Under the pieces are notes generated by a model that had not been told where the DNA came from, made no database searches, and saw only the letters and a list, made by a program, of their open reading frames with translations. Below are positions 6,278 to 50,216 of a DNA stretch of 64,000 nt, in pieces. The stretch covers positions 31,763-95,762 of the forward strand of contig JBAOIN010000006.1 in the NCBI GenBank assembly GCA_037045455.1, in the 5' to 3' direction. Source of the stretch: Candidatus Nanopelagicales bacterium (lineage in GTDB: Bacteria; Actinomycetota; Actinomycetes; S36-B12; UBA10799). How positions within the stretch are numbered: the first letter of the stretch is position 1; each line of letters starts with the position of its first letter. The position numbers and the translations under genes were made by a program.

Positions 6278-6331
6278 GGTCGCGCTGCAACTCTCGGGCT
6301 TGGGTCTTCGGGGATTGCAGCCTCAGCGCCG

Positions 6332-6429
6332 CATCGGTTAGAGGTTCCACCATCCGTTAGGCCGACTCGCCGCTCAACGCACTAACGGATGTTCCAAGGT
6401 CTAACCGATGGGCGAAGGTCTAACCGATG
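6332..6429. repeat. array of five phased decamers: CATCGGTTAG, CATCCGTTAG, then inverted CTAACGGATG, CTAACCGATG, CTAACCGATG
   Basis: Motif starts at 6332 and 6351, then 6382, 6401 and 6420. Phasing is 19 bp within each block and the blocks are inverted relative to each other. Lies in the gap between convergent genes. Confidence 0.8.
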
Positions 6430-7211
6430 CGGCCGCGGTCAGGGCATAACAAGCGATAGCGGCCGCCGTCGCGACATTGAGCGAGTCCGTACCGCGGGCC
6501 ATGGGGATCCGCAAGCGCACGTCAGTCGCGCGCTGCGCCTGCTCGCTCAACCCCGGCCCTTCGGTCCCCACCAGCAGCATCACAGGACCCGCCGGGCGCC
6601 ATTCGCGCAGCGAGTCCTTCCCGGCCGGGTCCAGGGCGACCGTCTGCATGCCTCGCGCTGCCGCAATTCCGGCGCCGACGTCCGCCACCGTCGTCCACGG
6701 CATCGTGAACACCGCTCCCATCGACGTCTTCACGCTGCGCCGATACCACGGGTCGGCACAGCGCCCCGTGACGAGCACGGCATCCACTCCCAGTCCCGCA
6801 GCCGAACGGAAGATGGCACCGACGTTCGTATGGTCCACGAGGTCCTCGAGCAGGATTGCCGTCCGAGCCCCGGCCAGGATCTCGCGTGCGGCCGGTTGCG
6901 GCGGGCGTTCAAAACACGCCAGCGCGCCGCGGTGCAGCCGGAACCCGGTGATGTCGCGGAGAAGCGCTGGCGGCGCCACGTACACCGGCACGTCGGACGG
7001 CACATGCGGTTCCAGCCCTGGCCACCACTTCGCCTCCATCAGGGCGCTGTGCATGTGCAGTCCGGCGGCCAGCGGCCCGGCGGATCACCTTCTCGCCCTC
7101 GGCCAGGAAGATGCCCGCCTCCGGTTCGCTGACCATCCGCAACTGCATGTCGGTCAGCCGCGTGTAGGGCGCGAGCCGGTCGTCGGCGGGATCCTGTACG
7201 TCGATCAGCAT
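6401..7211 (-). pseudogene. TrmH/SpoU family RNA methyltransferase, frame broken by a net +1 indel near 7075
   Basis: The N-terminus (MLIDVQDPADDRLAPYTRLTDMQLR..FLAEGEKVIRRA) is in the frame of ORF 6909..8015. The remainder (LEDLVDHTNVGAIFRSAAGLGVDAVL..) is in ORF 6401..7054. Confidence 0.8.
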
Positions 7212-11113: not shown

Positions 11114-12601
11114 ATGCCTCGTGTGACCCATCAACTCGATCCGCAGTTCGCCGCGCTCGATCTGGCGTCGCTGCAGGACGCGGCGCTGTCCACGTGCAGG
11201 GCGTTCAACGCGACGTATGCCTGCATGCGCGTGCAGCAGATCAAGACCCGCGTTCTGCATCTTCGCGACCAGCAGGTCGAGACGTCGCTGGACCACCGAG
11301 ACCTCGGCGTGGGCGTCCGGGTGGTAGTGGACGGGGCCTGGGGGTTTGCGGCGACCAGTTCGCTGACCCCGGAGGCAGTACGGAGGGCGGCCAGGCGAGC
11401 CTGCGAACTCGCCCAGCGATGTGCCGGGCTGCCCGGGCCACGCGTGCAGATCGCCGAGGAGCCGGTGGCTCGCGGCACGCATGTCTCGTCGTACGCGGTC
11501 GACCCGTTCGACGTGCCGGTGGCTGCGATGGTGGACGTGCTGCGTGACCGAGCCGGACTGATGCAGGGTCTGGACCACACCAGCGCCAGCCTGGAATGCG
11601 CCAAGGAGACCGTGTTCCTGGCCGACCTGGCAGGTGCGGAGATCCGCCAGCAGCGCGTCCGCTTGTACCCGGTCTACACCGGAGTGCGGATCACGGCCGA
11701 CGGCTTCGACGACATGTCGACCATCGCGGCACCCGTGGGGCGCGGGTGGGAGTACTGCCTCGACGGTTACGACTGGGAGTCCGAACTCACCGCGCTCCCC
11801 GGCCTGCTGGACGAAAAGTGCGCCGCGCCGAGCATCAAACCGGGCCGCTACGACCTGGTCATCGACCCCACCAACCTGTGGCTGACCATCCACGAGTCGG
11901 TGGGGCATGCCACCGAGAAGGACCGTGCGCTGGGCTACGAGGCGAACTACGCGGGCACCTCATTCGCGACTCCCGACCAGCTCGATCGCCTGCAGTACGG
12001 CAGCCCGCACATGAACATCCGCGCGGACCGGACCGCTGAGCACGGCCTGTCCACGGTCGGCTGGGACGACGAGGCGGTGGCCGCCCAATCCTGGGATCTG
12101 ATCCGTGACGGCGTGCTGGTCGGCTACCAACTCGACCGGCAGATGGCGGCACCCGAACGCTCCAACGGATGCGCCTACGCCGACAGTGCCGAGCACGTCC
12201 CGATCCAGCGGATGCCGAACGTGAACCTGCAGCCCAGCCCCGACGGTCCGGACACCGCCGGGCTGATCGGGCAGGTCGAGGACGGGATCTACATCGTCGG
12301 CGACAAGTCCTGGTCGATCGACATGCAGCGCTTCAACTTCCAGTTCACCGGGCAGCGCTTCCACCGCATCCGCAACGGCCGCCTGGACGGCCAGGTCAAA
12401 GACGTTGCTTACCAATCCACGACGCTGAACTTCTGGAACGCGCTGGCGGCGTGCGGCGGCCCGCAGACCTACGTGCTGGGTGGCGCGTTCAACTGCGGGA
12501 AAGGCCAGCCGGGACAGGTGGCGCCGGTGTCTCATGGCTGTCCGAGCGCGTTATTCACCCAGATCCCGATCCTCAACACCCGCGCGGAGGCCGGCCGATG
12601 A
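11114..12601 (+). CDS. tldD: TldD family metalloprotease
   Basis: Metal-binding HESVGH motif and the conserved C-terminal GGxxNCGKG-like region. Paired with a PmbA-like gene by an ATGA overlap. Start uncertain (TTG 11084 or ATG 11114). Confidence 0.85.
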   Translation: MPRVTHQLDPQFAALDLASLQDAALSTCRAFNATYACMRVQQIKTRVLHLRDQQVETSLDHRDLGVGVRVVVDGAWGFAATSSLTPEAVRRAARRACELAQRCAGLPGPRVQIAEEPVARGTHVSSYAVDPFDVPVAAMVDVLRDRAGLMQGLDHTSASLECAKETVFLADLAGAEIRQQRVRLYPVYTGVRITADGFDDMSTIAAPVGRGWEYCLDGYDWESELTALPGLLDEKCAAPSIKPGRYDLVIDPTNLWLTIHESVGHATEKDRALGYEANYAGTSFATPDQLDRLQYGSPHMNIRADRTAEHGLSTVGWDDEAVAAQSWDLIRDGVLVGYQLDRQMAAPERSNGCAYADSAEHVPIQRMPNVNLQPSPDGPDTAGLIGQVEDGIYIVGDKSWSIDMQRFNFQFTGQRFHRIRNGRLDGQVKDVAYQSTTLNFWNALAACGGPQTYVLGGAFNCGKGQPGQVAPVSHGCPSALFTQIPILNTRAEAGR

Positions 12602-13935
12602 GTTACGAACTGGTGGCCGCCGCCCTCGGGGAACTCGACGAGGGCAGTGCAATCCTGCGAGTGGGCCACAGCCGCAACCTGCGGTGGGCGAACTCTGCAC
12701 TGACGACCAACGGCGACATGCAGACCACGAATCTCACGGTCGTGGCCAGTGGCGCGGCAGACCAGGGCCGCCGGGTGGCCGTCCTGTCCGGTCAGGTTGC
12801 GGACCCCGCCGAAGCGGCTGCTTTGGCGTCTGCCGCACAGCAGGCGATGCGCGACGCGGCTCCGGTGGACGCGACAGCTCTGCCACCCGGTGAACGACGC
12901 GATATCGACGAACCCGCCGCCGAGCTTGACGATTCGACCACCGAAACCATGCTGGCCGGAGTGGGCCAGTTCCTGGAGTCCGGCGCGGCCCAGTTCGGCT
13001 ACGCGGAGGCCGATCGCGTTACCACCTACCTGGGCACCACGGCGGGAACCGGCGTGCGGCATGTGCAGGATTCGGTGCGGTTCGAGGCCAGCGCCCGCGA
13101 CGACACCGGTTCGACCTGGTGGGGAACGAACACATGGGATGCCGACTTCGCCGCTGCGGCCGCCCAACAAGCGCAGGACCTACGGCTGCAGGCGGCCCGC
13201 GAGCAGCTCGCACCTGGCCGGCACACCGTCCTTCTGACGCCGTCCGCTGTGGCCGACCTGCTGATCTACCTCACGTGGTCGGCAAGCGGTCGCGATGCAG
13301 TCGAGGGGCATAACGTGTTCGCCCGCACCGGCGGTGGCACCCGGATCGGGGAGGCACTGTCCGACCGGGACCTGACCTTGTACGCGGATCCGGACTACCC
13401 CGGCCTACAGACCTGCGGCCACGCCGTCGTGGAAGCCAACTCGAGCATGGAGTCTGTATTCGACAACGGCCTGCCGCTGGCCCGGCAGGACCTGCTGCGC
13501 GGGGGCAGGCTGGTCGGGTTGCGCGCGTCCCGGCCGACGGCGACCCGCTTCGGGCTGCAGCCGTTCTACCTGGCCGACAACCTCATCCTCGAGGACGCCG
13601 CCGGGCATGGGACCATGGCCGATCTGATCGCCCGGACGCAGGATGCCGTGCTCGTCAACTGCCTGTGGTACATCCGGGAGGTCGATCCGCAGACGTTGCT
13701 GCTCACCGGGCTCACGCGAGACGGGGTCTACCGCGTGCGGGACGGGCAGATCGTGGCGGCGCTGCCCAACTTCCGCTTCAACGTGGCCGTTCCCGACCTG
13801 TTGAGCAGGATCCGGGATGCTTCCGGGACGCAGTCCTGCCTGCCGCGGGAATGGGCGGACTGGTTCGTGCGGACCGCCATGCCTGCGCTGGTGGTGGACG
13901 ACTTCAACCTCAGCAGCGCCAGCGACGCACGGTGA
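12598..13935 (+). CDS. PmbA/TldE family metalloprotease partner
   Basis: 445-aa product starting MSYELVAAALGELDEG at ATG 12598, inside ORF 12169..13935. TldD/PmbA fold family by sequence character and by pairing. Confidence 0.8.
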   Translation: MSYELVAAALGELDEGSAILRVGHSRNLRWANSALTTNGDMQTTNLTVVASGAADQGRRVAVLSGQVADPAEAAALASAAQQAMRDAAPVDATALPPGERRDIDEPAAELDDSTTETMLAGVGQFLESGAAQFGYAEADRVTTYLGTTAGTGVRHVQDSVRFEASARDDTGSTWWGTNTWDADFAAAAAQQAQDLRLQAAREQLAPGRHTVLLTPSAVADLLIYLTWSASGRDAVEGHNVFARTGGGTRIGEALSDRDLTLYADPDYPGLQTCGHAVVEANSSMESVFDNGLPLARQDLLRGGRLVGLRASRPTATRFGLQPFYLADNLILEDAAGHGTMADLIARTQDAVLVNCLWYIREVDPQTLLLTGLTRDGVYRVRDGQIVAALPNFRFNVAVPDLLSRIRDASGTQSCLPREWADWFVRTAMPALVVDDFNLSSASDAR

Positions 13936-13966: not shown

Positions 13967-14227
13967 GGAATCGCAAATCGGTTAGCACGCTGGGCATCGG
14001 TGAGCGTCACGGGCATGAAAACCCCCCCGCGGTGCTAAGGAACCACTGATTAACCATGCCCCGGCTGCAACGTGCCTGAGCGCGCAATCTGCTTCACCCC
14101 ACATCTAGCGCCATAGCGCTGCTATGACCCACGATGTGGGTCTTGCATCTCACACCCTCAGCCACGTCTCGCTCGGAACAGCGTTAATCAGTACCTCCCT
14201 AACGGATGCCCGGAATGCTCACGGATC
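13967..14227. repeat. decamer-array palindromic repeat, copy with nested insert of about 160 bp
   Basis: The left arm and core (13967..14035) and the right arm (14199..14227) match the copies at 18247..18344 and 49117..49207. The interior carries 10-bp inverted repeats ACTGATTAAC (14045) and GTTAATCAGT (14183), and the stem CCCACATC/GATGTGGG. Confidence 0.8.
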
Positions 14228-14269
14228 GGGCGCGACGGGCCGCGGCGCGGGGAACATCGCGCCTAAGGG

Positions 14270-14560
14270 TCAACCCTGCGGCGGCGAACCGATCTGCCGC
14301 TGGTCGTTGACGATCATCGTCGGCGGTGCGGCCTCGCTGCGCTTACGTCCGGCGTTGGCCATGATCACGGCGACGTAGGGCAGCACCACGGCCCCGGCCA
14401 CGAGCGTCCACCGCAGCCACCCCGACGCGATGATGGCGCCGATGAAGCAGACCGTGCGGATCGCCATCGAGATCAGGTAGCGGCGGGTGCGGGCGCGCTG
14501 GTCCTCCAGGATCGAAACCTGGGCACCCGTAATGGAGACGCTCTCCTGGGACCGTGCCAC
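14270..14560 (-). CDS. DUF3099-like small membrane protein
   Basis: Two-TM protein (..RYLISMAIRTVCFIGAIIASGW..VAGAVVLPYVAVIMANAG). GTG start at 14560 chosen inside ORF 14270..14674. Confidence 0.65.
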   Translation of the reverse strand: MARSQESVSITGAQVSILEDQRARTRRYLISMAIRTVCFIGAIIASGWLRWTLVAGAVVLPYVAVIMANAGRKRSEAAPPTMIVNDQRQIGSPPQG

Positions 14561-14613
14561 ACCTCCACGGTAGTCTCGGCCCGGCGAACCCGCCAACGAA
14601 CCCGGGAGCCGCA

Positions 14614-16449
14614 GTGACTGCCACGCTCGAACGTACGCCGCCCCGCGCGGCCGTGCGCACCTGGCCACTGGCAACGGCCGCCATCGTGACGCTGCACTTC
14701 GCGTTCTGGGGGCTGACCATGCTCCGGGGCTGGCTCTACTGGGACGACTTCATCCTGCAAGGGCAGGCGGCCCGACTGGGCCTGTCGACGGACCTGCTGC
14801 TGAACAACCACGACGGCCACGTCATGCCGGCGGTGTACGCCATCGTGTGGTTCCTGCAGGATCTGGGCGGCTTGGACTACGGCGTTGTCGCGGTCAGCAT
14901 GCTGCTCGGCCAGGTCGCCCTTGTCGTGTCGGCTGTCCTGGCGTTCCGGGCCGTGCTGGGTCACGGCATGGGGTCAGCCGTTGCACTTGCCGTGTTCCTG
15001 CTCAGTCCGATCATGCTGCCCGGCTTCACCTGGTGGTCGGCTTCGCTCACCCTCACGCCGATGCTGACCTGCTTGCTGTTCGCGACAGTGGCGCAGGTCA
15101 GGTATCTGCGCAGTGGGTCCACGGGGTCGGCAATCACCGCGTATGTGCTGGTCGCGGTGTCGCTGTGCTTCTTCGAGAAGAGCTTGCTGATCCCGGTCTG
15201 GCTGTTCCTGCTCACCGTGCTTGCGACTCCCGAATCAGGCTTCCTGGCCGCCACGAGGCTGACCCTGCGACGGCATTGGCGACTGTGGACTGGCTGGGTC
15301 GTGCTGGGGCTTGCCTATCTCGTGGCTTTCGGCCAGGTCGCCGAGGGTCGTACCCATCTGCCGACCGGTCCGGGTCAGGTCGTCGACCTCGTGTGGCGAG
15401 CGCTTACGGCCACGATCGCCCCGGGCCTGGTGGGCGGCCCAGTGTGGTGGGTGCCCGTGGACTACAGCGCCTCGTTCGCCGATCCCCCGTTCTGGCTGCG
15501 GCTGCTGGGCGCTGCCGCGCTGCTGTTCGCGATCGTCGCGGGGGTCCGCCAGGCTGGTCCGGCCCGCAAAGCCTGGATCGCTGCCGGCATCTACCTCGCC
15601 CTGGACCTGACGACATTCGCGGTGGGCAGGCTCGGGCCTGCGGGCGACCCCGGCGTCGTGCAAGCCGGACGTTACGTGGCCACCAGCATGGTGGCGATCG
15701 CCGTTGCCTTGGGCGCCACGGCCCACGCCCGGAGGGCCGCACTGCAGCATCCGCGTGTGCGCTGGCCGTTGGTCGGCGGACTGACCCTGGCCGGTCTCCT
15801 GACCTTGTTCTCCGTCTTCGGTTATGCCGCGATCTGGGGCGACAACCCAGCCCGCACGTGGGTGGGCAACGCCCGCGCCGATCTCGCCCGCGCCGACGCG
15901 GCCGTTCCCCTGCTGGACCAGGACGTGCCCGATTTCCTGCTGCTTCCCGTGACCCATCCCTACAACCAGATCAGCTGGTTCCTTGCGCCGGTCCGGCCGC
16001 AGCCGGGGGTTTCGGCGAGCACGAGTCAGCTGCAGATCCTGGACAACCGAGGCCACCTGGTCCCCGCCGCGGTGGACGGTCCGGCCGCAACCGCCACGAC
16101 CTGTACGCCCGTGCCCCCGGGCGCCTCTGTCACCCTGCCGTTGGAGCACGCGGTGATTGCGTGGCTGCACACCGTCGCGATCGACTACCAGGCACAGCGC
16201 GCGGGCGTGATCGAGGTGTCCATCGGTTCCGGAGATCCGGTCCCGGCCACGGTCGTGTCCGGACGCCATCAGGTCTTCGTGCGCGCAGAGGGGGGTGAAG
16301 CCAGCGTGACCGTGCGGGCCACCGATGCCTCGCTGTGCGTCGCCGGGGTGAAGGTAGGCGCTGTTGTCCCGGCGGACCTGCCGTACGGTGGAGGCACCGA
16401 CATCACCGATCAACTCGAGGATCTCGAGAACGGAGGCAGACAGCCATGA
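14614..16449 (+). CDS. large polytopic membrane protein, possible GT-C type glycosyltransferase
   Basis: About 610 aa. More than 10 predicted TM helices are followed by a C-terminal extracytoplasmic domain of about 170 aa. An acidic motif (YWDDF) lies in the first loop. The functional call is inference only. Confidence 0.5.
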   Translation: MTATLERTPPRAAVRTWPLATAAIVTLHFAFWGLTMLRGWLYWDDFILQGQAARLGLSTDLLLNNHDGHVMPAVYAIVWFLQDLGGLDYGVVAVSMLLGQVALVVSAVLAFRAVLGHGMGSAVALAVFLLSPIMLPGFTWWSASLTLTPMLTCLLFATVAQVRYLRSGSTGSAITAYVLVAVSLCFFEKSLLIPVWLFLLTVLATPESGFLAATRLTLRRHWRLWTGWVVLGLAYLVAFGQVAEGRTHLPTGPGQVVDLVWRALTATIAPGLVGGPVWWVPVDYSASFADPPFWLRLLGAAALLFAIVAGVRQAGPARKAWIAAGIYLALDLTTFAVGRLGPAGDPGVVQAGRYVATSMVAIAVALGATAHARRAALQHPRVRWPLVGGLTLAGLLTLFSVFGYAAIWGDNPARTWVGNARADLARADAAVPLLDQDVPDFLLLPVTHPYNQISWFLAPVRPQPGVSASTSQLQILDNRGHLVPAAVDGPAATATTCTPVPPGASVTLPLEHAVIAWLHTVAIDYQAQRAGVIEVSIGSGDPVPATVVSGRHQVFVRAEGGEASVTVRATDASLCVAGVKVGAVVPADLPYGGGTDITDQLEDLENGGRQP

Positions 16450-17426: not shown

Positions 17427-18203
17427 ATGGATCTTGGCCTGCAGGGCCGCTGTTTCGTACTGACCGGCGCGTCGCGCGGTCTGGGATTCGCGGCCGCCCA
17501 GGCGCTGGTCGCCGAGGGCGCGAACGTCGTGGTCGTCGCCCGCGACCAGGCCACGCTGGACAACGCCGTCGCCGACCTGGGAGCGGGAGCCTTCGGAATC
17601 TCCGCTGACCTTGGGGCCGAGAGCACCTCGGAGATCGTGACGGCGGCGGCCCTCGCCCGCTTCGGCCGGCTGGACGGTGCCCTGATCAGCGCCGGCAGCC
17701 CGCCGCCCGGGACTCCGATGACTGCGTCCGACGACGCCTGGCGGGCCGCCTTCGAGACGTTGTTCCTCGGCGGTCTGCGGATGGCCCGGGCGACAGCTGC
17801 TTCGGTGACCCGGGAAGAGGGCCTGCCGGGTACCTCGGGCAGCATCCTCATGGTGCTGTCGACCTCTGCCCGCTCCCCCATCCAGGGGCTGGCACTGTCC
17901 AACGGCTTGCGGCCGGGCCTGGCCATGATGGTCAAGGACCTCGCCGACGAACTTGGGCCGCAGGGGGTCCGGATCAACGGCATCCTGCCCGGCCGGATCG
18001 CCACCGACAACGTCTTCGCCCAGGATGCCCGGCAGGGGGACCCCATGGCGGTGCGGCGGCGCCGGGAGGGCGCGATTCCGCTGCGGCGCTACGGCGAGCC
18101 CGACGAGTTCGGCGCGGTGGCGGCGTTCCTGCTGTCCCCGGCGGCTTCCTACATCACCGGCGCGTTGATCCCGGTCGAGGGTGGAGCGCTGCGGTCGCCG
18201 TGA
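17427..18203 (+). CDS. SDR family oxidoreductase
   Basis: TGASRGLG cofactor motif and the length typical of classical SDRs. Confidence 0.85.
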   Translation: MDLGLQGRCFVLTGASRGLGFAAAQALVAEGANVVVVARDQATLDNAVADLGAGAFGISADLGAESTSEIVTAAALARFGRLDGALISAGSPPPGTPMTASDDAWRAAFETLFLGGLRMARATAASVTREEGLPGTSGSILMVLSTSARSPIQGLALSNGLRPGLAMMVKDLADELGPQGVRINGILPGRIATDNVFAQDARQGDPMAVRRRREGAIPLRRYGEPDEFGAVAAFLLSPAASYITGALIPVEGGALRSP

Positions 18204-18246
18204 CGCGACACGATGTGGGGGCGAACTACGGCGAACCCGCGGAGCC

Positions 18247-18344
18247 AATTCGTGAGCATTCCGGGCATCCGTGAGCACCGCGGGCGGGGTTTTTGGTCGC
18301 CGGAAGGCTAACCGATGCCCAGAGTGCTAACCGATTGCGAGTCC
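18247..18344. repeat. decamer-array palindromic repeat, archetype copy (inverted relative to the 49117 copy)
   Basis: Decamers at 18247, 18266, 18308 and 18327 with 19-bp phasing. Core CCGCGGGCGGGGTTTTTGG. Near-identical to the reverse complement of 49117..49207. Confidence 0.85.
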
Positions 18345-18412: not shown

Positions 18413-20281
18413 TCAGCCGACGGTCGTCAGGCTGAACTGCGCGTAGTGCCGCGCGTAAACGCCACCGGCGCCCAACAGGTCGTCGTGCGTGCCGCGCTCC
18501 ACGATCCGGCCATCCTCGACGACCAGGATCAGGTCGGCGTCGCGCACGGTCGAAAGCCGGTGGGCGATCACCAGCGACGTCCGGCCGGTCAGCGCCGCGG
18601 ACAGGGCACGCTGCACTGCCCGTTCGTTCTCGCTGTCGAGGTGGGCGGTGGCTTCGTCCAGGACGACTACGCCGGGACGTTTGAGCAGCAATCGGGCGAT
18701 CGCCAGCCGCTGCTTCTCTCCCCCGGACAACCGATAGCCGCGATCCCCAACCACGGTGTTGAGCCCGTCCGGCAGGCTGCGGATGAGCTCGGCGATCTGG
18801 GCGTCCTCGCAGGCTGACCAGATCTGCTCGTCGGTCGCCTCCGGCGCGGCGTAGCGCAGGTTCACACCGATGGTGTCGTGGAACATGTGCGCGTCCTGCG
18901 TCACATAGCCGACGGTGTTGCGCAGTGAGGCCAGGGTGGCGTCTCGCACGTCGATCCCGCCGAGCCGTACGGCACCGGTGTCCACGTCGTAGAGCCGGGC
19001 GACCAGTTGCGTGATCGTCGTCTTGCCGGCGCCACTGGGACCGACCAGCGCGACCATCGCACCGGCCGGGATGCTGAAGTCAACGCCGTGCAGGATCTGT
19101 TCGCTCAAGCGCGCCTCCTCGACCGCCACGCTCTCCAGGGAGGCCAGGGAGACCTCGTCGGGCGAGGGGTAGTGGAAGTCGACGTTCTCGAACTGCACGC
19201 CCACTGGCCCGTCCGGCAAGTCGACTGCGCCCTCGCGCTCACGGATGAGCGGTGGCAGGTCGAGCACTTCGAAGACCCGCTCGAAGCTGACCAGCGCCGT
19301 CATGACGTCGACCCGGACGTTGCTGATGGCTGTCAACGGCCCGTACAGCTGAGCCAGCAAGCCGGTTAGCGCGAGCAACGTGCCCAACGTCATCGCCCCA
19401 CCGACGACCAGATTGCCGCCCACCCCGTAGACCAGCGCAGTGGCAAGGGCGGCCACCAGCGTGAGCGCGGTGAGGAAGTACCGGTTGGCCATCGCGATCT
19501 GCACGCCGATGTCGCGCACTCGACCCGCTTTGCCTGCGAAATCGGCATCCTCCTGGAGAGGCCGGCCGAACAGTTTGGCCAGCAGTGCGCCGCCGACGTT
19601 GAACCGCTCGGTCATCTGCGTGCTCATGTCGGAGTTGAGTTGCATCTGCTGACGGGTGAGGGTCGCCAGCCGCCGCCCCATCCACTTGGCAGGCAGGATG
19701 AACAACGGCACGAGCACCAACGCCGCCAGCGTGATCTGCCAGGACAGCGCGATCATCGTCACGAGCACGACCACCAGACTGATCAGGTTGCCGAGAACGC
19801 CAGACAGGGTCGAGGTGAAGGCCTGCTGGGCCCCGATCACATCGTTGTTGAGCCGCGACACCAGCGCGCCGGTCTGGGTCCGCGTGAAGAACGCGATGGG
19901 CTGACGCTGCACGTGCGCGTAGACCTCACTGCGCAAGTCGAAGATGAGCCCCTCGCCGATCTGGGATGACTGCCATCGGCTGATAAGTCCGACGACCGCG
20001 TCCACTACGGCCAGCAGGGCCACGAGAATCGCCGTCCCGGTCACGACTGCCGCGTTCCCCGGGGTTATGCCGTCATCGACGATGCGCTTGAAAAGCAAGG
20101 GCTGGGCCACGACCAACAGGGAGTCCACCACGAGAAGCAGCAGGAAGCCGATGATCAAACGCCGGTAGCGAGTTGCGTATCCAAGGATCCGCCGGATCGT
20201 TCCTGGAGCGAGTTTGTGCTCGATGACGGACTCGTCGCGGCGGAAGGAGCGCATCGTGTTGTGCGCACCCATCATCGACAT
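18413..20281 (-). CDS. ABC exporter, fused permease/ATP-binding protein (MsbA/multidrug type)
   Basis: Six-TM domain followed by an NBD with GPSGAGKTT, LSGGEKQRLAIARLL and VVVLDEATAHLD. ATG 20281 is preceded by GAGGTGG. Confidence 0.9.
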   Translation of the reverse strand: MSMMGAHNTMRSFRRDESVIEHKLAPGTIRRILGYATRYRRLIIGFLLLLVVDSLLVVAQPLLFKRIVDDGITPGNAAVVTGTAILVALLAVVDAVVGLISRWQSSQIGEGLIFDLRSEVYAHVQRQPIAFFTRTQTGALVSRLNNDVIGAQQAFTSTLSGVLGNLISLVVVLVTMIALSWQITLAALVLVPLFILPAKWMGRRLATLTRQQMQLNSDMSTQMTERFNVGGALLAKLFGRPLQEDADFAGKAGRVRDIGVQIAMANRYFLTALTLVAALATALVYGVGGNLVVGGAMTLGTLLALTGLLAQLYGPLTAISNVRVDVMTALVSFERVFEVLDLPPLIREREGAVDLPDGPVGVQFENVDFHYPSPDEVSLASLESVAVEEARLSEQILHGVDFSIPAGAMVALVGPSGAGKTTITQLVARLYDVDTGAVRLGGIDVRDATLASLRNTVGYVTQDAHMFHDTIGVNLRYAAPEATDEQIWSACEDAQIAELIRSLPDGLNTVVGDRGYRLSGGEKQRLAIARLLLKRPGVVVLDEATAHLDSENERAVQRALSAALTGRTSLVIAHRLSTVRDADLILVVEDGRIVERGTHDDLLGAGGVYARHYAQFSLTTVG

Positions 20282-20347
20282 GGCCCCACCTCGTTCCCGG
20301 TCCCTAGAGGGCAACCGCGTGAGGGGCTATTGCATTCCCTCTATAGC

Positions 20348-28695: not shown

Positions 28696-29807
28696 GCAGT
28701 CTCCTCGTAGCCGAGTTCGGCCTCGACGGCCCGCATCAGTTCGCTGCGCACCATCGGCACGTCGATCCCGTCCAGCACGTCGGCGAAGAAGCCGAGCACG
28801 ACCAGCCGCCGCGCTTGCGATTCCGGGATGCCGCGAGACATCAGGTAGAACAACTGCTCCTCGTCGAATCTTCCCGTCGCGCTCGCGTGCCCCGCGCCCA
28901 CGACGTCGCCGGTCAGGATCTCCAGGTTCGGCACCGAGTCCGCCCGGGCGCCGTCGTCGAGCAGCAGGTTGCGGTTGATCTCGTAGGTCTGCGTGCCGAC
29001 CGCCGTCGGCTGGATGATCACGTCACCGACCCAGACACTGCGCGCCCCATCGCCCTGCAACGCGCCCTTGAAGACCACGTTGCTCGAGCAGTGCGGCTGA
29101 CCGTGGTCGACCAGTGAGCGGTGCTCGAAGCGCTGGCCGGCGTCGGCGAAGAACAGCCCGCGGATGTCGGCCTCACCGCCGGGTCCCGCGTAGTCCACCG
29201 TCTGCACAAGGCGCAGCGCCTCGCCCCCGAGGCTGACGACCACGCTGCGCAGGCGGGCATCCCGGCCGATCCGTGCCGCGATGTGACCCGCATGGACAGC
29301 GTCGTCGGACCAGTTCTGCACCATGACGAACTCGAGCGAACCGCCGTCGTGCACCACGACCGAGACGTTCCCGGCGTACAGGGAAGTACCGCTATGGCGC
29401 AGCACGACGATCGCCTTCGCATCGGCCCCGATTTCGATCAATGTTTGGCCCCAAACGACATCGCGGCCCTGACCGGTGAGGTCGATCACGACGGGCTCGG
29501 AATGCTCGGCTGCGGCGGGCACCTCCAGCAGCATCGCACCGCCGGAATGCGCAGCGGCCAATGCCGAGATCCGGTCCACCGGGGCACTCGCAGCGCGCTG
29601 CCGGGCTTCCTGCGCGGAGATCTCCCGCACCGTGATGCCGGCGGGCACGGTCGCGTGCCACGTCAGGTGGGCATCGGAGGCGGCATCCTCAAGCAGCGGC
29701 TTGAGCGCGGCGCGGGGCGCAAACCGCCACACCTCCTCGCGGCCGGTCGGTTCCGGGAATTCCGCGAGGTCGTAGGAGCGGACACCGCTCATGCTGATCT
29801 CGCCCAT
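28692..29807 (-). CDS. sufD: Fe-S cluster assembly protein SufD
   Basis: 371 aa with the conserved C-terminal SufBD domain (..[22 protein letters not shown]..). Confidence 0.9.
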   Translation of the reverse strand: MGEISMSGVRSYDLAEFPEPTGREEVWRFAPRAALKPLLEDAASDAHLTWHATVPAGITVREISAQEARQRAASAPVDRISALAAAHSGGAMLLEVPAAAEHSEPVVIDLTGQGRDVVWGQTLIEIGADAKAIVVLRHSGTSLYAGNVSVVVHDGGSLEFVMVQNWSDDAVHAGHIAARIGRDARLRSVVVSLGGEALRLVQTVDYAGPGGEADIRGLFFADAGQRFEHRSLVDHGQPHCSSNVVFKGALQGDGARSVWVGDVIIQPTAVGTQTYEINRNLLLDDGARADSVPNLEILTGDVVGAGHASATGRFDEEQLFYLMSRGIPESQARRLVVLGFFADVLDGIDVPMVRSELMRAVEAELGYEETA

Positions 29808-32338
29808 CAGCCGACCGCTCCTTCCATCTGCAGTTCGATGAGCCGGTTGAGTTCCAGCGCGTACTCCATCGGCAGTTCCCGCGCGATCGGTTCGATGAAG
29901 CCGCGCACGATCATCGCCATGGCCTCGTCCTCGGTGAGGCCACGGGACATCAGGTAGAACAGCTGGTCCTCGCCGATCTTGCTGACCGTGGCCTCGTGCC
30001 CCATCGCAACGTCGTCCTCACGGATGTCGTTATAGGGGTAGGTGTCGGAGCGGCTGATGTCGTCGACAAGCAGCGCATCGCACTTCACTGTGGACTTCGA
30101 GCCCTTCGCACCCGGGTTCACCTGGATCAGGCCGCGGTACGAGGCCCGTCCGCCACCACGAGCCACCGACTTCGACACGATCGTCGACGAGGTGTTCGGA
30201 GCGGCGTGCACCATCTTGGATCCCGCGTCCTGGTGCTGGCCCTCCCCCGCGAAAGCAACGGACAGGGTCTCGCCCTTGGCGTGCTCGCCCATCAGCCAGA
30301 CGGCCGGGTACTTCATCGTGACCTTGGAACCGAGGTTGCCGTCGATCCACTCCATGGTCGCGCCCTGCTGGGCGATCGCCCGCTTGGTGACCAGGTTGTA
30401 GACGTTCGTCGACCAGTTCTGAATGGTCGTGTAGCGGCAGCGGGCGTCCTTCTTCACAACGATCTCCACAACCGCGGAATGCAGACTGTCCGTGGAGTAG
30501 ATCGGCGCCGTGCAACCCTCGACGTAGTGCACGTACGCGCCTTCGTCCACGATGATGAGCGTCCGCTCGAACTGCCCCATGTTCTCGGTATTGATCCGGA
30601 AGTAGGCCTGCAACGGGATTTCCACGTGCACGCCCTTGGGCACGTAGATGAACGACCCGCCCGACCACACGGCAGTGTTCAGGGCGGAGAACTTGTTGTC
30701 GCCGGCCGGGATCACAGATGCGAAGTGCTCACGGAACAGGTCTTCGTGCTCCTTGAGGCCCGTGTCGGTGTCCAGGAAGATGACGCCCTGCTCCTCGAGA
30801 TCCTCGCGGATCTTGTGGTAAACAACCTCGGAGTTGTGCACCACGATGCCCTCTGCGATGAAGTTGTGCGGGCCGTCAACCTCGACGTCAAAGACTGGCT
30901 CGACCTCATGCGCTTCGATGCTGGCGATGCGGGCGAACCCAAGGTGGTCGGTCACGTGTGCGCGAATGGTCGTACCGCGTACCGCCCGGTTGCTGTGGCC
31001 ATACGCACGCCGTCCGAATCGCGCAGTGCGTTTGGGGTTGCGGCAATCGAGCTTCTCGCAGTCGCCGGACAGGTGCAGGCGGAATGCAGTCAGCCGTCGT
31101 GACGCATCGTGCGGGTGAGCGTTGGTGAACTCGTACGGCCCAGCGACACCCATGCCCAGCGTCGCGGCGAGTTCGAGACCTTGTTGCAGCAAACAGGAAT
31201 TGCCGCTGGTCAGGCGCACACCTGAGGCCCGATCTGGCGCCACGTAACCGTCGGCGTCGACCCAGCCGCCGAGGAACGCCAGGCGCTGGTCTTCGGGCAG
31301 GTCGTACACCCACAGCGGGATCTGTTTGGTCAGGCTGGTACCGCCGAATCCTTGCGCCCAGAGCCATTCGACGAGGTCCTTGGAGTTCACGACCACCCGG
31401 TAGTTGTCGGCCTCGATCACACGCTTGCCGAACTGCTCGGCAACGATACGGGAGATCTCCGCGCGGACCTCAGGGTCCCTCTCGTCGACTGCGAACTGGA
31501 CACGGTGTGTCCGTCCCGCCGACTGCGTGTTGCCATCGCCGAGGAAGAAACCGAGCAGCCACATCAGATCCGGGGTGCTGCACTCGGGACCGAAATCACC
31601 CTCGAAGACGCGCACTTGGCCAAATGTTGGCAGCCCGCGAGGCACGGCCACCATGTCGCCCGGCTGCAACTCCGCCACTGTCTTCCAGACCCGGCGGTAG
31701 CGAGCCCGCTGACGGCCCGGCTTGCGGGCATCCTCAAGCACCAGGAACGGATGGTTGTCGGTGGCACGGATGATCCGGGTCCCGACCTTGATGCGGTAGG
31801 TGAGGCGAGTGTCAGTCTGAGCAGCAGCCTTGACTGGCGCGACTTCGAACTCCCCCGTCTCCTCGTTGAGAGCGAAGACGCGGTCACCAGGCTCGATCGC
31901 CTTGATCGGGACGAGGCCGCGCCCAGCAGTCCAGACGCGCGTGTCACCGGCGAGGCACTCGTATTGCGCGGCCACACCGGCGATCAGCCGCTGCTTCTCC
32001 GCCTCCGGGATCCCCAGCCGGTCGTAAGTGTTCTTGATGTCGGCGGGCAGTTCCTCCCACGAGGTCGCCTGCTTCTCGGTCGAACGCACGAAGTACTTGA
32101 TGGTGTCGAAGTTGATGTCCGACAGGTCCGCGCCCCACGTGGGCATGGGCTTCTTCTCGAACAGCCGCAGCCCCTTCAGACGCATCTCCAGCATCCATTC
32201 GGGCTCGTTCTTCAGCGCGGAGATCTCGCGGACGACGTCCTCACTCAGGCCGCGCTTGGCCGTGGCACCGGCCACATCCGGGTCCGCCCAGCCGTACTCA
32301 TAGCGGCCGAGGTCGGCCAGTTGGTCCATGTCGCTCAT
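29807..32338 (-). CDS. sufB: Fe-S cluster assembly protein SufB, interrupted by an in-frame intein
   Basis: Starts [17 protein letters not shown] at ATG 32338 (ATGA overlap with the sufR stop). The exteins total about 468 aa with the canonical SufB C-terminus. It forms the lower part of the 1090-aa ORF 29807..33079. Confidence 0.9.
30833..31957 (-). mobile_element. SufB intein (375 aa) with LAGLIDADG homing-endonuclease domain
   Basis: Inserted at ..GVAAQYE|C...VVHN|SEVVYH... Block A is CLAGDTRV, block B is ATDNHPF, and the C-terminus is HN followed by +1 Ser. Two LAGLIDADG motifs are present ([21 protein letters not shown]). Confidence 0.9.
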
Positions 32339-32995
32339 GAATGGATCCTTTCCGGAGTCGGTGACACCAGACACGTGCACACCCCATCGCCGTGGGCGAT
32401 CGTGGCCAGTCGCGTGACGTTGGTGTCGAGTAGCCGAGCGAAGGCTTCCGCTTCGGCGTCGCACAGTTGCGGAAACTCGTGGGCGGCCTGGCCCACCGGG
32501 CAGTTGTGCTGGCAGACCTGCAGGACCGCGGTGGGCCCTTCGGCCACGCTGGCCGCATACCCGTCGGCCGTGAGCAGTTCTGCCAGCCGCGCGGCCCGCT
32601 CGTGCGGCGTCGACGATGCCTTCGAGTTCGGGGCGGTAGCGCTGCTCGAGGTCGGCGGCGCGGCGACGGGCGAAGTCGGACAGTGCGTCGGGTTGCACTT
32701 GTCCTAGGAAACGCAGAGCGCTGACGGCCAGGTCGTCGTAGGCCTGCTCGAAGCGGCGCCGCCCGAGGTCGGTGAGTGCGTAGATCTTGGCGGGCCGGCC
32801 CCGGCGGGGACCGGGCATCGGGCCGAACGGGGGCCGGTCGCCGGCCAGCACGTCACCGGTGGCCTCGAGTGCGTCGAGGTGCTTGCGCACGCCCGCCGCG
32901 GTGATTCCCAGCCGCGCCGAGAGGTCAGCGGCCGTCGCTGGACCGTCATCGAGCAGGCTGCGCACGACCCGCTCCTTGCCGCTGGCGCTTTTCAC
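32335..32995 (-). pseudogene. sufR: SufR (ArsR-type HTH, Fe-S sensing) repressor, frame broken by a net +1 indel at about 32600-32620
   Basis: The N-terminal wHTH (..[32 protein letters not shown]..) is in the 1090-aa ORF frame. The Cys-rich C-terminus ([23 protein letters not shown]) is in ORF 32335..32547. GTG 32995 is preceded by GGAG. Confidence 0.8.
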
Positions 32996-33239
32996 AACTC
33001 CATTGTTGCGTAATTCTGGCTGGGCACAATGACGGGGGTCACATTTCGGTGCTCCAAGTCCCGCTTCTGCCTCGTGCATTGCGCGGCCCGCTGTTGTCGT
33101 GGGTGCCTTCTAGATTTGCTGGTGAGTGCCGGGGGCCTGTGGATTTGTGCGGCTCGGTTTTGTCAGACCCTCCTGTCATTCTGAGATTGGCAGTCGGGGC
33201 CTGCCCTTCTTCTCTTTCTTCTTCTGGGTTTGGGGGTGT

Positions 33240-34469
33240 GTCGTGTCGTTGGAGATCTCTCACAATGCGCATCGGCGTGCCCGGATCCGGGAGTCGCTGC
33301 CCACCGAACATCCGAAGCTGCTGGACCAGGTCGCGGGATTGGTCAATCACCTTCCGGACCCGGCCGAGTTGAGCCTGGAGGAGCTCGCCGGGTCACTCGG
33401 GGTCGCCGGGCGGCTGGTCAACCAACTCGAAGCCTGGCTGACGACAGTGGCCGCCGAGGCCGATACCCGCAAGGCCTCCCAGGTGTTGTGCGCCGGGACC
33501 ACCGGGACGATGGTCGCGGCGGCGTTGAACACCACCCCGGCGGCCGGGTCGGGGATGGTTGCCACCGGCCGGGCGCTGCGCGACTTGCCCGCTGTGGCCG
33601 AGGCCTATCGAGCCGGCGCGATCGGGACCAGGCAGGTACTCGCGCTGCAGCACGCCGCACCCAGAATCCAGGATTTCGCCCAGAACGAGCAGTCGCTGGT
33701 CGAGATCGCCTCCCAAGTCGATCCCAAGGAACTACGCCGGCTGCTGGACGTGCTGATCACCCAGTCCATCCCCGAAGGCGCGGACATCGACCACCTCAAA
33801 CAGCGCGACAAACGGGGCCTGTCGCTGAATGAACGTCAGGACGGCATGTGGAAGATCGAAGGGCTACTCGACGCGATCACCGGGAACAAACTGCAGGACC
33901 TGCTGCAACCCTTGATGGCCAAAGACGGCAAGGACGACAGCCGCTCCCCGAAACAGCGCCGCGCCGACGCCCTCGACGATCTGGTGAGCCTAGCCCGGGC
34001 CAACCGCTCACCGCTGGGGGTGTCCGGGCTGACCGTGCTCGTCGACATCGACGGCCTCCCCGACGAGGCGCGTGCGGTACTCGAGGACGGCAGCGTGCTG
34101 GGCCCGGACACCTTCGACCTGCTGTCCTGCAGCGTGGCCATGTCGGTGATCTTCGGGGTCAACCGGCCGAAGGGTTTCGAACCGCTGCAGCTGGCCCGCA
34201 CCGCCCGGCGGGCCAGCAAGGACCAGTGGACCGCTCTCAAAGCGCGCGACAAAGGCTGCGTGCGCTGCGGGAAACCACCTCGGTTCACCGAAGCCCACCA
34301 CATCATCCACTGGAAGGACGGTGGTTTGACCGACCTACGAAACCTGGTCCTGCTGTGCGCACGATGCCACCACGACCTGCACCTCGGCTACTTCAACGTG
34401 ATCATGGGCGACGACGGCATCCCGATCCTCATCCAAGGACGCGGACCACCCGGCAAACGCACGGGCTGA
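33240..34469 (+). CDS. DUF222 / HNH endonuclease domain protein
   Basis: C-terminal HNH motif (CVRCGKPP..EAHHIIHWKDGGLTDLRNLVLLCARCHHDLH). The N-terminal region resembles the DUF222 architecture. Start approximate (GTG about 33240). Confidence 0.8.
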   Translation, partial: VVSLEISHNAHRRARIRESLPTEHPKLLDQVAGLVNHLPDPAELSLEELAGSLGVAGRLVNQLEAWLTTVAAEADTRKASQVLCAGTTGTMVAAALNTTPAAGSGMVATGRALRDLPAVAEAYRAGAIGTRQVLALQHAAPRIQDFAQNEQSLVEIASQVDPKELRRLLDVLITQSIPEGADIDHLKQRDKRGLSLNERQDGMWKIEGLLDAITGNKLQDLLQPLMAKDGKDDSRSPKQRRADALDDLVSLARANRSPLGVSGLTVLVDIDGLPDEARAVLEDGSVLGPDTFDLLSCSVAMSVIFGVNRPKGFEPLQLARTARRASKDQWTALKARDKGCVRCGKPPRFTEAHHIIHWKDGGLTDLRNLVLLCARCHHDLHLGYFNVIMGDDGIPILIQGRGPPGKRTG

Positions 34470-47249: not shown

Positions 47250-47980
47250 GTATCCAGATCGGCGTCTACCCGACGCCCGAGGCGGTGTCGGAAGCGGTCG
47301 CAAACCACATGGCGGGCGCGATGCTGCCCGTACTCCTCGGCTCTGACCTCGCCCACATCTGCATCACTGGCGGACGCGGCGGCCACGGCGCGCTGGCGGC
47401 CCTGGCGGACAACCCCGGCATCGACTGGAGCCGGGTGCACGTGTGGTGGTCCGACGAGCGCTTTCTGCCACGCGGCGACGACCAGCGCAACGACACGATG
47501 GCCAAGGACGCGCTGTTCGACCGGGTCGACCTGCCGGCCGGCAACGTCCATCCGATGCCGGGCAGTGACGAGTTCGACGACATCGAGGAAGCGGCCCGCT
47601 CCTACGCCGCGGAACTGGCAGCCTTTGGCCCCCCGCGGTTCTGCGTCTCCATTCTGGGAATGGGTGAGGACGGCCACGTGGCCTCGCTGTTCCCCGAGCA
47701 TGCCGGGCTGCGCGAGACCCGCCCGGCGTTCCCGGTCACCGACTCCCCCAAACCGCCCCCGCGGCGGATCTCACTGTCCTTCGATGCGATCAACACCGCC
47801 GACGCCGTGATCCTGATCGCGTCCGGTGCCGGGAAGGCCGATGCCGTGGGACTGCTGATCAACGACCCGGGGCCGTTGGCAGTACCGGCCGCCGGCGTGC
47901 ATGGCCGGGTGAGCACCCTGCTGGCCGTCGACGAGGCCGCGGCGGTGCACCTGCCGCCGGGGTTGAGCCGCTACGCCTGA
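47246..47980 (+). CDS. pgl: 6-phosphogluconolactonase
   Basis: ITGGRGG, WWSDERF and MGEDGHVASLFP motifs. ATGA overlap with the opcA stop. Confidence 0.9.
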   Translation: MSIQIGVYPTPEAVSEAVANHMAGAMLPVLLGSDLAHICITGGRGGHGALAALADNPGIDWSRVHVWWSDERFLPRGDDQRNDTMAKDALFDRVDLPAGNVHPMPGSDEFDDIEEAARSYAAELAAFGPPRFCVSILGMGEDGHVASLFPEHAGLRETRPAFPVTDSPKPPPRRISLSFDAINTADAVILIASGAGKADAVGLLINDPGPLAVPAAGVHGRVSTLLAVDEAAAVHLPPGLSRYA

Positions 47981-48009
47981 GGACGTATTTGCACATTGCT
48001 TACCCGGCG

Positions 48010-48991
48010 GCTGAAAGGGCAAGCCGTCGTCCTCCCCGATCCGCAACTGCGCGCCGGGGTGGGCCTTCTCCCGGCGGGCGATCAGGCGCATCCCGGCCGG
48101 CCAGGTCCCGCGGGCGGTGCCCGGGGTCCACCGGGCGGTCAGTTCGGCGACGTAGGCCTGTTCGCGGGGGTTACCGGCCGCGTCGACGGCTTTGCGCCAC
48201 GCCTGCCGGGGCAGGTCGGCCAACGCCGCCGCGACGGTGTCGTGCACGGCCATGCCCACGCAGTAGTCCAGTCCCAGCCCGGCCACATGCCCCAGGAACT
48301 CCTTGGTGCCCCCGGCCGAATCGGCGCGCACCAGCACCCTGCCCCGGTCAGCGGCGGGCAGTTGAGCGATCGCCGCGTCGAGCACCGCGATGTGATCGGC
48401 GGCCGTGGACGACCCGGCGTTACCCGGGCGCAGCAACCCAGCCAGCGGCTCCCCGGCCCCGCCGGGGCCATGATCGGCGAACGCCAGCAACGGGTGGAAC
48501 CCGAACCCGCGCTTGTAGTTCGGCGCCGCGCCCTGCTTGTCCGAATGCGCCCCCACCAAGGTGGCGTCCAGATCCACGACCACCGGGCCGTCTGCGACCG
48601 GGTTGGCCTGTGACCACACCTGCCTCCGGGCCCCGGCCCGCACCGCGCGGATCGCTGCAAGCACCTCATCCACGTCGGCGGCCAACACCTCCAGCAGCCG
48701 TGACACCGTCGGGTCTGAGGCCACCGCCCCGAACACCTGCGGCTGGGCGCGCACCACCGCCACATCGGACAGGCAGTCCCCACCGACCGCGATCGCCACC
48801 ACCAGATCCAGCAGCACCTTGCCCGGGTCATGCACCGACCGTGGTGAGCGCCACCCGGCCAGCCCGGCCGACAACCCCGATGCCAGCCCGCAGGCCGCAG
48901 CGGTCTGGGTCAGCAGCCGCCCTCCCGAGGTCGACACCAACGCGTCGGCGCCAGCTACCACACGAACATTCGGATACGGGTTACCGTTCAC
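48010..48991 (-). pseudogene. IS1380-family transposase, 3'-truncated remnant
   Basis: HDPGKVLLDL, DLDATLVGAHSDKQGAAPNYKRGFGFHPLLAF and LRPGNAGSSTAADHI match the IS1380 DDE transposase pattern. Similarity ends after ..AHPGAQLRIGEDDG (about 48020). The ORF then runs on meaninglessly into the 3' end of pgl. Confidence 0.75.
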
Positions 48992-49100
48992 CTACGGAGT
49001 GCCTTTCCACTTGCGATTGAATCTTTGGACCTTTAGACAGCCTCAATTCTCCCGAGCAGGACAGGCACTTCCGTCTATTTCTGACGCCGCCGACACACCA
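48010..49100 (-). mobile_element. IS1380-family insertion sequence remnant (termini not defined)
   Basis: Truncated transposase gene plus a lower-GC upstream flank of about 100 bp (48992..49100). No inverted repeats could be paired because the 3' part is missing. Confidence 0.55.
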
Positions 49101-49116
49101 GCCCCAGACGAAAGAT

Positions 49117-49207
49117 CTGAGGTTAGCACTCTCGGCATCGGTGAGCACCACGGTCGCCAAAACCCCGCCCGCGGTGCTCTCGGATGCCCGGAATGCTCAC
49201 GGATCGG
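49117..49207. repeat. decamer-array palindromic repeat copy
   Basis: Decamers at 49117, 49136, 49177 and 49196 (19-bp phasing). Core CCAAAACCCCGCCCGCGG. Near-identical to the reverse complement of 18247..18344. Confidence 0.85.
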
Positions 49208-49251: not shown

Positions 49252-50216
49252 TCAGATCGGCAAGCCCAGCTCCTTGAACGTGTTGCACTGGTTGATGTCG
49301 CCGGTCTGGTAGCCGCGGGTGTACCAGTACTCGCGCTGCTTGGCCGATCCGTGCGTGAACTTCTCGGGATTCACGCGAGCACCCGCGCTCTCCATGATCC
49401 GGTCGTCGCCGACGGCCGCTGCCGCCTGCGATGCCTGCTGGAACTCCTCCGGCGTGATCTGCACGTTGCCCATGTCGTTGGCCAGCCTGCCCCAGACGCC
49501 GGCAAAGCAGTCCGCCTGCAGTTCCATCGCCACGCTGTAGTTGTTGGGGTTGCGAGCAGACTGCTGGGCCCGGCGGACCTTCTGCTCGATGCCCAGCACG
49601 TTCTGCAGGTGGTGGCCGTACTCGTGGGCCATGATGTAGACCATCGCGTACTGGCCCTTCACGCCCAGAGCCCTCGAGTTGGCGCGTGAAACCGAGGTCG
49701 AAGTAGATGCGTTCGTCACCGGGGCAGTAGAACGGACCCACGTTGGTGTCGGCGGCGCCACATGCGGTGCGCGTGGCGCCGCTGAAGAACGTCAGTTTGG
49801 GGGTTTGCAGCTGCTGGCCGGCCTGCTGGAAGACCCCGCTCCAGACCTCGTTGGCCTCGTTGTAGGACTTCACGAGCAAGCAGTCGGTGTCCTCGAACGT
49901 CCCGTCCGCGGCATCCTGCGGACACCGCTCGGCCAGTGAGCCATTCACACCCTGGGCGGATCCGGGGACCTCGAACAGGGCATTGTCCGCCCCGCCCGAC
50001 TGCGGAGCGGTGCCACCACCTCCGAGGCTGCACATGGCCAGGACGATCAGGATCACGATCGTCAGCCCGGCACCGCCGCCCAGCATCTTGGACAATCCGC
50101 CGGCCATGGCGACCTGGCCCGGGCCCGATGCCCCCGGAGCCCATGGGCGAACCGCTGTTGTTGCCCCGCTGATCGTCGACACCCGACAGATCGACGTTGT
50201 TGTCGTCGAACTTCAT
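49252..50216 (-). pseudogene. YpfJ-like neutral zinc metallopeptidase (membrane anchored), two net +1 frame breaks (about 50112-50127 and 49671)
   Basis: MKFDDNNVDLSGVDDQRG.. is in ORF 49716..50216. The TM and middle part are in ORF 49043..50182. The HExxH part (YIMAHEYGHHLQ) and C-terminus are in ORF 49252..49761. Confidence 0.8.

Follow-up and report, generated by a model that had tools for sequence, protein, structure and literature searches.

The 64-kb stretch of DNA analysed here (the window) has a G+C content of 67% and carries three copies of a palindromic element of ~93 bp, referred to as copies A, B and C. Copies A and C each lie between two convergent genes, and copy B lies 3' of a gene. 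Their coordinates are collected in Table 1, together with those of a related array and of the elements inserted into copies B and C.

Table 1. Features of the repeat and associated elements (positions are those of the window unless a contig is named)
Feature	Position	Strand	Remark
Copy A, full-length	18245-18338	-	nhmmer E=5e-31
Copy A core, family orientation	reverse complement of 18248-18335		88 bp; loop longer by one T
Copy A outer motif, one arm	18247-18256	+	AATTCGTGAG; degenerate
Copy A inner motif	18266-18275	+	CATCCGTGAG; 19 bp past outer motif
Copy A centre	18276-18307		short GC stem (consensus CGGGCG/CGCCCG) flanking loop GGTTTTTGG
Copy A inner motif, opposite arm	18308-18317	-	CTAACCGATG on + strand
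Copy A outer motif, opposite arm	18327-18336	-	CTAACCGATT on + strand
SDR gene	17427-18203	+	neighbour of copy A; convergent with ABC transporter gene
ABC transporter gene	18413-20314	-	neighbour of copy A; convergent with SDR gene
Copy B	49122-49207	+	first bases of outer-left motif missing; nhmmer E=7e-26
Copy B, detached left edge GGGCAA	48017-48022	+	unbroken with rest of copy in strain L140
1.1-kb insert in copy B	48023-49120	-	truncated DDE_Tnp_1_4 transposase; outside repeat family
Zn-peptidase gene	49252-49761	-	copy B lies 3' of it
Copy C, entire span	13977-14226
Copy C, left part	13977-14038	+	left arm, centre and start of inner-right motif
Nested MITE in copy C	14039-14198		160 bp, IS5-like; TIR GGAACCACTGATTAAC and imperfect inverse; outside repeat family
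Copy C, right arm	14199-14226	+	motifs at 14199 and 14218
TldD-like gene	12169-13935	+	neighbour of copy C; convergent with DUF3099 gene
DUF3099 gene	14270-14674	-	neighbour of copy C; convergent with TldD-like gene
Type-2 relative	6328-6433		2 + 3 CATCSGTTAG motifs, 19-bp phase, inverted arrays
Nested-MITE copies outside window	L128 4587-4739; L113 3737-3840; L132 469-572
Copies with GGATCTnTCACGTG shell	L113 3868 and 4021; L133 ~7400 and 7551; L135; L124 1282; L130

Anatomy of the repeat and its state in the window

A repeat search of the window aligned the copies with one another. The reverse complement of 18245-18293 matched 49159-49207 with 94% identity over 49 nt, and 18287-18332 matched 49121-49166 with 78% identity over 46 nt. 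The arms of copies A and B were found again at 13976-14031 and 14199-14229. The alignments reported in a first-pass annotation of this DNA were reproduced by these matches.

In the window, 13 instances of the decamer CTMACSGATG were counted where 0.61 would be expected, and 13 was not reached in any of 100 shuffles that preserved the dinucleotides. Same-strand pairs of the motif (as a 9-mer) no more than 60 bp apart were counted in the window and in the metagenome loci fetched later. The spacing was 19 bp in 108 of the 111 pairs, 20 bp in two and 38 bp in one. The first-pass annotation had listed decamer starts at 19-bp spacing in the three copies. The positions and the spacing were right; three of the listed decamers are degenerate (18247, AATTCGTGAG; 49177; 49196), several outer ones carry one or two mismatches, and position 49117 holds only a GTTAG remnant.

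An arm consists of two 19-bp units in tandem with two ATCSGTKAGC motifs, and the arms are inverted relative to each other. Along the element, two direct sub-repeats of 19 bp are followed by a CCAAAACC loop on a short GC stem and then by the same sub-repeats inverted, each with the motif (GGGC)ATCSGTKAGC(A). The left part of the consensus is gCA ATCSGTKAGCA ttCn GGGC ATCGGTKAGC atnC CGGGCG; it continues on the right as CCnAAAnCC CGCCCG nggt GCTMACGGAT GCCC GGAA TGCTCACGGAT CGG. In 32 of 36 copies the core, bounded by the first ATC and the last GAT, measures 87 bp. The inverted arms, ~32-34 nt long, are terminal inverted repeats, and in most copies the 19-bp unit lacks self-complementarity.

The consensus forms an almost perfect hairpin (DNA, -38.9 kcal/mol, z = -8.4; RNA, -65.2 kcal/mol). 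Its T/A run is the apical loop of the main hairpin, and no tail follows the stem. The first-pass annotation had described arms inverted around a C-rich core. The arms are inverted as described, and the core is the apical loop of the hairpin rather than a terminator tail. An intrinsic terminator was rejected, as the GC-rich stem has no U-tract directly following it.

Copy A is full-length. The other two copies were also counted as full in the first-pass annotation, and both turned out to be damaged by other mobile elements. Copy B had been read as complete from 49117; its outer-left motif is in fact cut by the 1.1-kb fragment. The transposase ORF (47771-48991, -) has a Pfam match that stops at residue 317, exactly at the junction. 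In strain L140, the same locus has an intact copy B without the fragment. As a candidate parent element of the repeat, the transposase fragment was rejected, since its end carries no motif, it occurs only in the window among the fetched loci, and it is absent from L140.

The region 13967-14227 had been seen as bracketed by the same arms. It does hold a copy of the family, an ordinary one split by the nested MITE. The MITE is flanked by a 4-bp duplication, CTAA, at 14035-14038 and 14199-14202, and it splits the inner-right motif of copy C. Its relatives include one copy of 99.3% identity at an unrelated locus and, at a third locus, one of 78%. The nearly identical copy elsewhere indicates that this IS5-like MITE family is young and recently active. 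In copies B and C alike, the insertion point is the TTAG/CTAA tetranucleotide within the motif. In these two cases in the window, the repeat is passive DNA and a landing site for other mobile elements.

Two further features of the window were noticed. The SufB gene region (29807-33079, -) has an intein with a LAGLIDADG homing-endonuclease domain, and its longest ORF extends into an upstream HTH (SufR-like) region. Beside the suf operon lies a gene for a DUF222 protein with an HNH endonuclease domain (33126-34469, +), which we take to be of the kind called REP13E12 in mycobacteria. In relatives, a DUF222 gene is located elsewhere (L162; L163, 3814-4937), which suggests a mobile gene.

A second array with the same motif lies between convergent amino-acid permease and SpoU methylase genes. 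The first-pass annotation had listed 6332-6429 as a related array without the core. It belongs to a separate family, named type 2, whose only common features with the main family are the decamer and the 19-bp phase; it has its own spacers, centre and unit number. Two further type-2 members were found at unrelated loci (L106, 7803-7881; L136, 13160-13248). The second family is the strongest sign that the decamer at 19-bp spacing would be the recognised feature. The SpoU methylase ORF (6401-7054, -) has its final codons and stop codon inside the right arm of the window copy (6401-6433), and the type-2 insertion may have remodelled the C-terminus of the methylase. A supposed degenerate array at 1992-2040 consists of three GnTTAG words at 19/20 bp. 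It was missed both by the profile and by a motif search allowing one mismatch, and we dropped it from the family.

Unit number also varies. Two variants lack exactly one left-arm 19-bp unit (L134, 1505-1580; L111, 8410-8485). Motif number therefore changes in whole 19-bp steps (1+2, 2+2 and 2+3), which is consistent with slippage between direct sub-repeats. A minority of copies have an extra outer inverted repeat, GGATCTnTCACGTG, 20-49 bp outside the core, giving a palindrome of ~165 bp; this shell was never found on its own. At the edge of one contig (L135, 14-45), two TTCACGGAT words stand 19 bp apart in another context and may be a third motif-array variant.

Distribution, host lineage and gene context

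Public metagenome contigs were scanned with a 21-mer common to copies A, B and C. The scan returned 51 loci, 47 of which were real copies with full architecture. An nhmmer profile built from these copies added others without the exact 21-mer. After the same locus was merged across samples, 36 distinct full copies remained. The multi-copy family proposed in the first-pass annotation, a palindromic intergenic repeat built on a 19-bp-phased motif, is thus real; copies exist beyond the window, and the phasing holds in them.

All 36 full copies came from one uncultured 'Candidatus Nanopelagicales' lineage. For the SURF1, SufC and SDR proteins, the nearest named relatives were 'Candidatus Nanopelagicales bacterium' MAGs, with no close isolate, and a mycobacterial host was rejected on the basis of these protein neighbours. 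Copies are spaced at about one per 21-25 kb, a density that holds for the window and for ~320 kb of fetched sequence alike. This suggests a copy number in the low hundreds per genome, a figure that is an extrapolation and not a count. Copies recurred at the same loci in different strains, and they had different flanks in independent assemblies from several projects. With a motif count of 13 against 0.61, and 36 copies with different flanks in independent assemblies, the probability of chance similarity or an assembly artefact is close to nil; the one point in favour of it is that the window derives from a metagenome.

The short-read Logan contigs L100-L104 (~4080 bp), which stem from independent assemblies and carry the SDR gene, start inside copy C and stop inside copy A. 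Such breaks are as expected of a repeat that fragments assemblies.

Database searches gave no named relative. BLAST against plasmids (PLSDB) and GenBank phages found no match. A scan of IMG/VR for two motifs 19 bp apart gave five chance matches on low-GC contigs with no inverted partner. Rfam 15 gave no match at the gathering threshold, and a permissive search returned chance miRNA-hairpin matches far below it. A degenerate-pattern scan of genome contigs (CSGATGCCSRGMRTGCTMACS) gave 94 stretches, all of them chance matches no longer than the pattern itself. Rep-PCR primers for M. intracellulare did not match the repeat. In the literature on mycobacterial and actinobacterial MITE/REP repeats, the motif strings, Nanopelagicales and REPIN, no description was found. 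These results agree with the first-pass annotation, in which no named repeat or RNA family had been recognised. The repeat family is apparently undescribed, but it falls within a common class of small bacterial interspersed repeats. What is unusual about it is its internal design, with four copies of a 10-base motif at an exact 19-base spacing.

Neighbouring genes could be called for 33 copies. The flanking genes were convergent for 19 of them (58%), tandem for 14 and divergent for none, and every copy adjoined at least one gene 3' end. Convergent junctions make up 7 of 50 junctions (14%) in the window, and the enrichment was significant (binomial p about 7e-9). The placement in non-coding gaps at gene 3' ends, as noted in the first pass, holds for the family. 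In tandem contexts, orientation was 9 to 5, which was not significant. The copies are dispersed among housekeeping and core genes in both orientations.

A syntenic block (TldD - DUF3099 - unknown - dodecin - SURF1 - SDR - ABC transporter) was recovered from relatives. Sites A and C were filled, including the nested MITE in C, where the SDR of the relative belonged to the same 90%-identity cluster. Both sites were empty, with short unrelated spacers, in four syntenic relatives with SURF1 identities of 86, 79, 70 and 68%. The intergenic gaps at the empty sites were 84, 42 and 7 bp for A and 48, 1, 5 and 4 bp for C. Filled sites in close relatives and empty sites in distant ones indicate that copies A and C were gained in the lineage, with the empty sites too diverged to place the exact ends. 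No filled/empty polymorphism was found among the sampled strains of the species, in which all copies were fixed.

No target-site duplication of 2-9 bp was present at any boundary tested, beyond matches internal to the palindrome. The repeat therefore fails a usual hallmark of a MITE, which makes a classical DDE MITE less likely and a recombinase that produces no duplication more likely. The ~600 kb of sampled loci contained no arm-flanked transposase gene, no autonomous copy and no lone arm array.

Conservation of the motif and of base pairing

Most copies were retrieved by the exact right-arm 21-mer, which inflates the conservation of the right arm. The left arm was not used in retrieval and is unbiased. 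In the left arm, motif positions A, T, C, -, G, T, -, A, G, C were 94-100% conserved across copies. The S position was C or G, apart from two T exceptions, and the K position was always G or T. In the spacers and the centre, conservation fell to 44-72% at the most variable positions, and the centre was the most variable part of the family. Outside the retrieval 21-mer, pairwise identity between copies had a mean of 77% and a maximum of 89%. These values indicate that the sampled copies are old, and they give no sign of recent movement.

Base pairing was kept less well. The S and K positions vary independently between the two arms. Of the 36 copies, 30 have a G.G mismatch at the inner S position and only 10 have a pair at the inner K/M position; the inner 4-nt spacers are unpaired. 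RNAalifold found a compensatory change in one of 20 predicted pairs. It is in the central stem, where pair 46/61 changes from G-C to G-U to A-U. Single copies nonetheless fold well: z was below -2 in 35 of 36 copies with mononucleotide shuffles (mean -6.3), and from -1.9 to -3.3 for the window copies with dinucleotide shuffles. The good folding of single copies follows from the conserved arms and not from selection on pairing. What is conserved is the sequence, not the structure, and the motif is kept far better than the spacers, the centre or the pairing. The first-pass annotation had likewise judged the decamers of the window copies to be better kept than their pairing.

Orthologous copies from different strains were also compared. 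Variable positions numbered 3 of 160 in the motif and 23 of 360 in the flanks (p=0.03), and 10 of 116 in the centre; this test covers four sites only and is partly biased by locus retrieval. The lower variation of the motif hints at selection in place, which would favour a host function over purely selfish spread.

Origin of the repeat and comparison with known systems

We consider it somewhat probable that the repeat belongs to the MITE / REPIN-BIME kind of interspersed repeats, being non-coding, non-autonomous and restricted to its lineage. It would have multiplied in one uncultured 'Candidatus Nanopelagicales' actinobacterium. The four phased motifs, two per end, would be putative binding sites for a trans-acting recombinase or transposase that moved the element, and this enzyme may be of a type that leaves no target-site duplication. 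Copies would persist at convergent gene ends as insertions are harmless there. In a transcribed 3' UTR, the hairpin might give incidental protection or definition of mRNA 3' ends, and the unit number would shift by slippage between the 19-bp repeats. We count the fixed length of the copies, the nearly invariant phase, the motif conservation, the gain in the lineage, the second family and the 3'-end context in favour of a mobile origin. The missing target-site duplication, the absence of an arm-flanked transposase, the absence of strain polymorphism and the divergence of the empty sites count against it.

Two other explanations were weighed, and both may coexist with a mobile origin. The repeat could be a host-recruited protein-binding array like a BIME, in which a chromosomal protein binds the motifs and each copy is kept at its locus. 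Candidates would be, for example, a nucleoid-associated protein, a topoisomerase/gyrase or a global regulator. The copies may then serve as dispersed architectural or supercoiling-relief sites between convergent genes, after an original spread by transposition or recombination. Such a role fits the conservation of the motif while spacers, centre and pairing drift, the low motif variation among orthologous copies, the shared decamer and phase of two distinct families, and the fixation of all copies in the sampled strains. It also fits the enrichment at convergent junctions, where positive supercoils build up, but the same enrichment is also expected from purifying selection against harmful insertions of a selfish repeat. 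Further, no candidate binding protein was identified, the in-place conservation test is limited to four sites with some retrieval bias, and relatives with SURF1 identity of 86% or less do without the element at the same junctions. As the principal explanation we regard this array as rather unlikely.

The other explanation is improbable in our view. An RNA-level element in 3' UTRs could act as a bidirectional terminator, as a 3'-end stabiliser against exonucleases or as an RNase III site. The stable folding of nearly all copies, their position after at least one gene 3' end (58% between convergent genes) and the changes at pair 46/61 agree with this. Published work on mycobacteria argues that U-less 3' hairpins are more likely to stabilise or define RNA ends than to terminate transcription (PMC3993855), which also speaks for an RNA role. 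However, no U-tract follows the stem, the A/T run being the loop, and a terminator scan gave one weak consensus site in copy A and none in copy B. Pairing is lost at S/K and at the inner 4-nt spacers with covariation at one pair in 20, conservation is of sequence and not of structure, tandem contexts show no significant bias in orientation, and Rfam has no match. The first-pass annotation had preferred a REP/BIME-like element or a protein-binding array to a plain terminator, and the kept motif, the unkept pairing and the T/A run in the loop bear this out. Of the two roles that may coexist with the mobile repeat, binding by a host protein is favoured by the weak in-place conservation.

Beyond the mobile repeat as such, we would assign a small probability to the phased ATCSGTKAGC arrays being sites of an as yet undescribed trans-acting system, either a recombinase or a chromosome-structuring host protein. 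One possibility is a duplication-free serine, tyrosine or HUH recombinase acting on four sites 19 bp apart. Another is a host protein for which the repeats serve as loading sites, dispersed over convergent gene ends. If this were true, the two sequence-distinct families would be alternative carriers of one binding code.

Small palindromic repeats break assemblies, seed rearrangements, receive other mobile elements and can alter mRNA ends. The family provides a handle on the genome dynamics of an uncultured, environmentally common actinobacterial lineage. It is also a clean case of a short phased motif, not a hairpin, being conserved, which makes a search for the cognate protein directly testable. 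Nothing known about such repeats is overturned at present.

Among known systems, REP/BIME/REPIN elements resemble the repeat in being ~70-110 bp long, non-coding and highly repeated, with inverted sub-units in a long hairpin. They are likewise extragenic after gene 3' ends and lack target-site duplications; IHF and gyrase are among the host proteins bound by BIMEs. The repeat shares the inverted doublet, the extragenic position and the missing duplication, but it lacks the palindromic unit: REP units are small palindromes with a GTAG or CGTC head, whereas the 19-bp units here are direct and non-palindromic with the motif ATCSGTKAGC. The sequences are unrelated, and the host is an uncultured actinobacterium. 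REPINs of enterobacteria and Pseudomonas are moved by RAYT HUH transposases; no RAYT gene was seen in the ~64 kb and the scattered loci.

Of the features of MITEs, the repeat has terminal inverted repeats, small size, no coding capacity, multiple copies and presence/absence at orthologous sites, and it lacks the target-site duplication. Correia/NEMIS (Neisseria), ERIC/IRU and RUP elements are similar to it in length (~100-150 bp), in their terminal inverted repeats and in being non-coding. They too are intergenic and lineage-restricted, and they have dozens to hundreds of copies that are co-transcribed with their neighbours. They differ in having target-site duplications (for example TA for Correia) and simple terminal inverted repeats, whereas in the repeat no duplication is detectable, two tandem 19-bp units make up each arm, and the sampled loci yielded no parent IS. 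An integron attC site was rejected as an identity for the repeat, with copies dispersed in both orientations among core genes and with sequence rather than structure conserved.

Iterons of plasmid and phage origins are, like the units of the repeat, direct repeats of ~17-22 bp in strict phase, and they bind an initiator. Iterons cluster at one origin beside a rep gene, whereas the repeat consists of inverted pairs at at least 36 scattered chromosomal loci with no rep gene, so the iteron-type array suggested in the first pass does not hold in the sense of a replication origin. The ends of Tn7, Mu and Tn402-type elements, like those of the IS607 family, have multiple phased transposase-binding repeats, with several copies of a 9-22-bp motif at fixed spacing near each end. 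The IS607 family is a functional analogue: its subterminal direct motifs are at fixed phase, no target-site duplication is made, and binding over the array is cooperative (PMC6188088). In IS1535, the motifs are 9 bp long with a helical phase of ~10 bp, and the ends are not inverted copies of each other (PMC6188088). Transposons with such ends carry their own recombinase genes, whereas the repeat has no gene, a 19-bp spacing (~1.8 helical turns) and perfectly inverted arrays.
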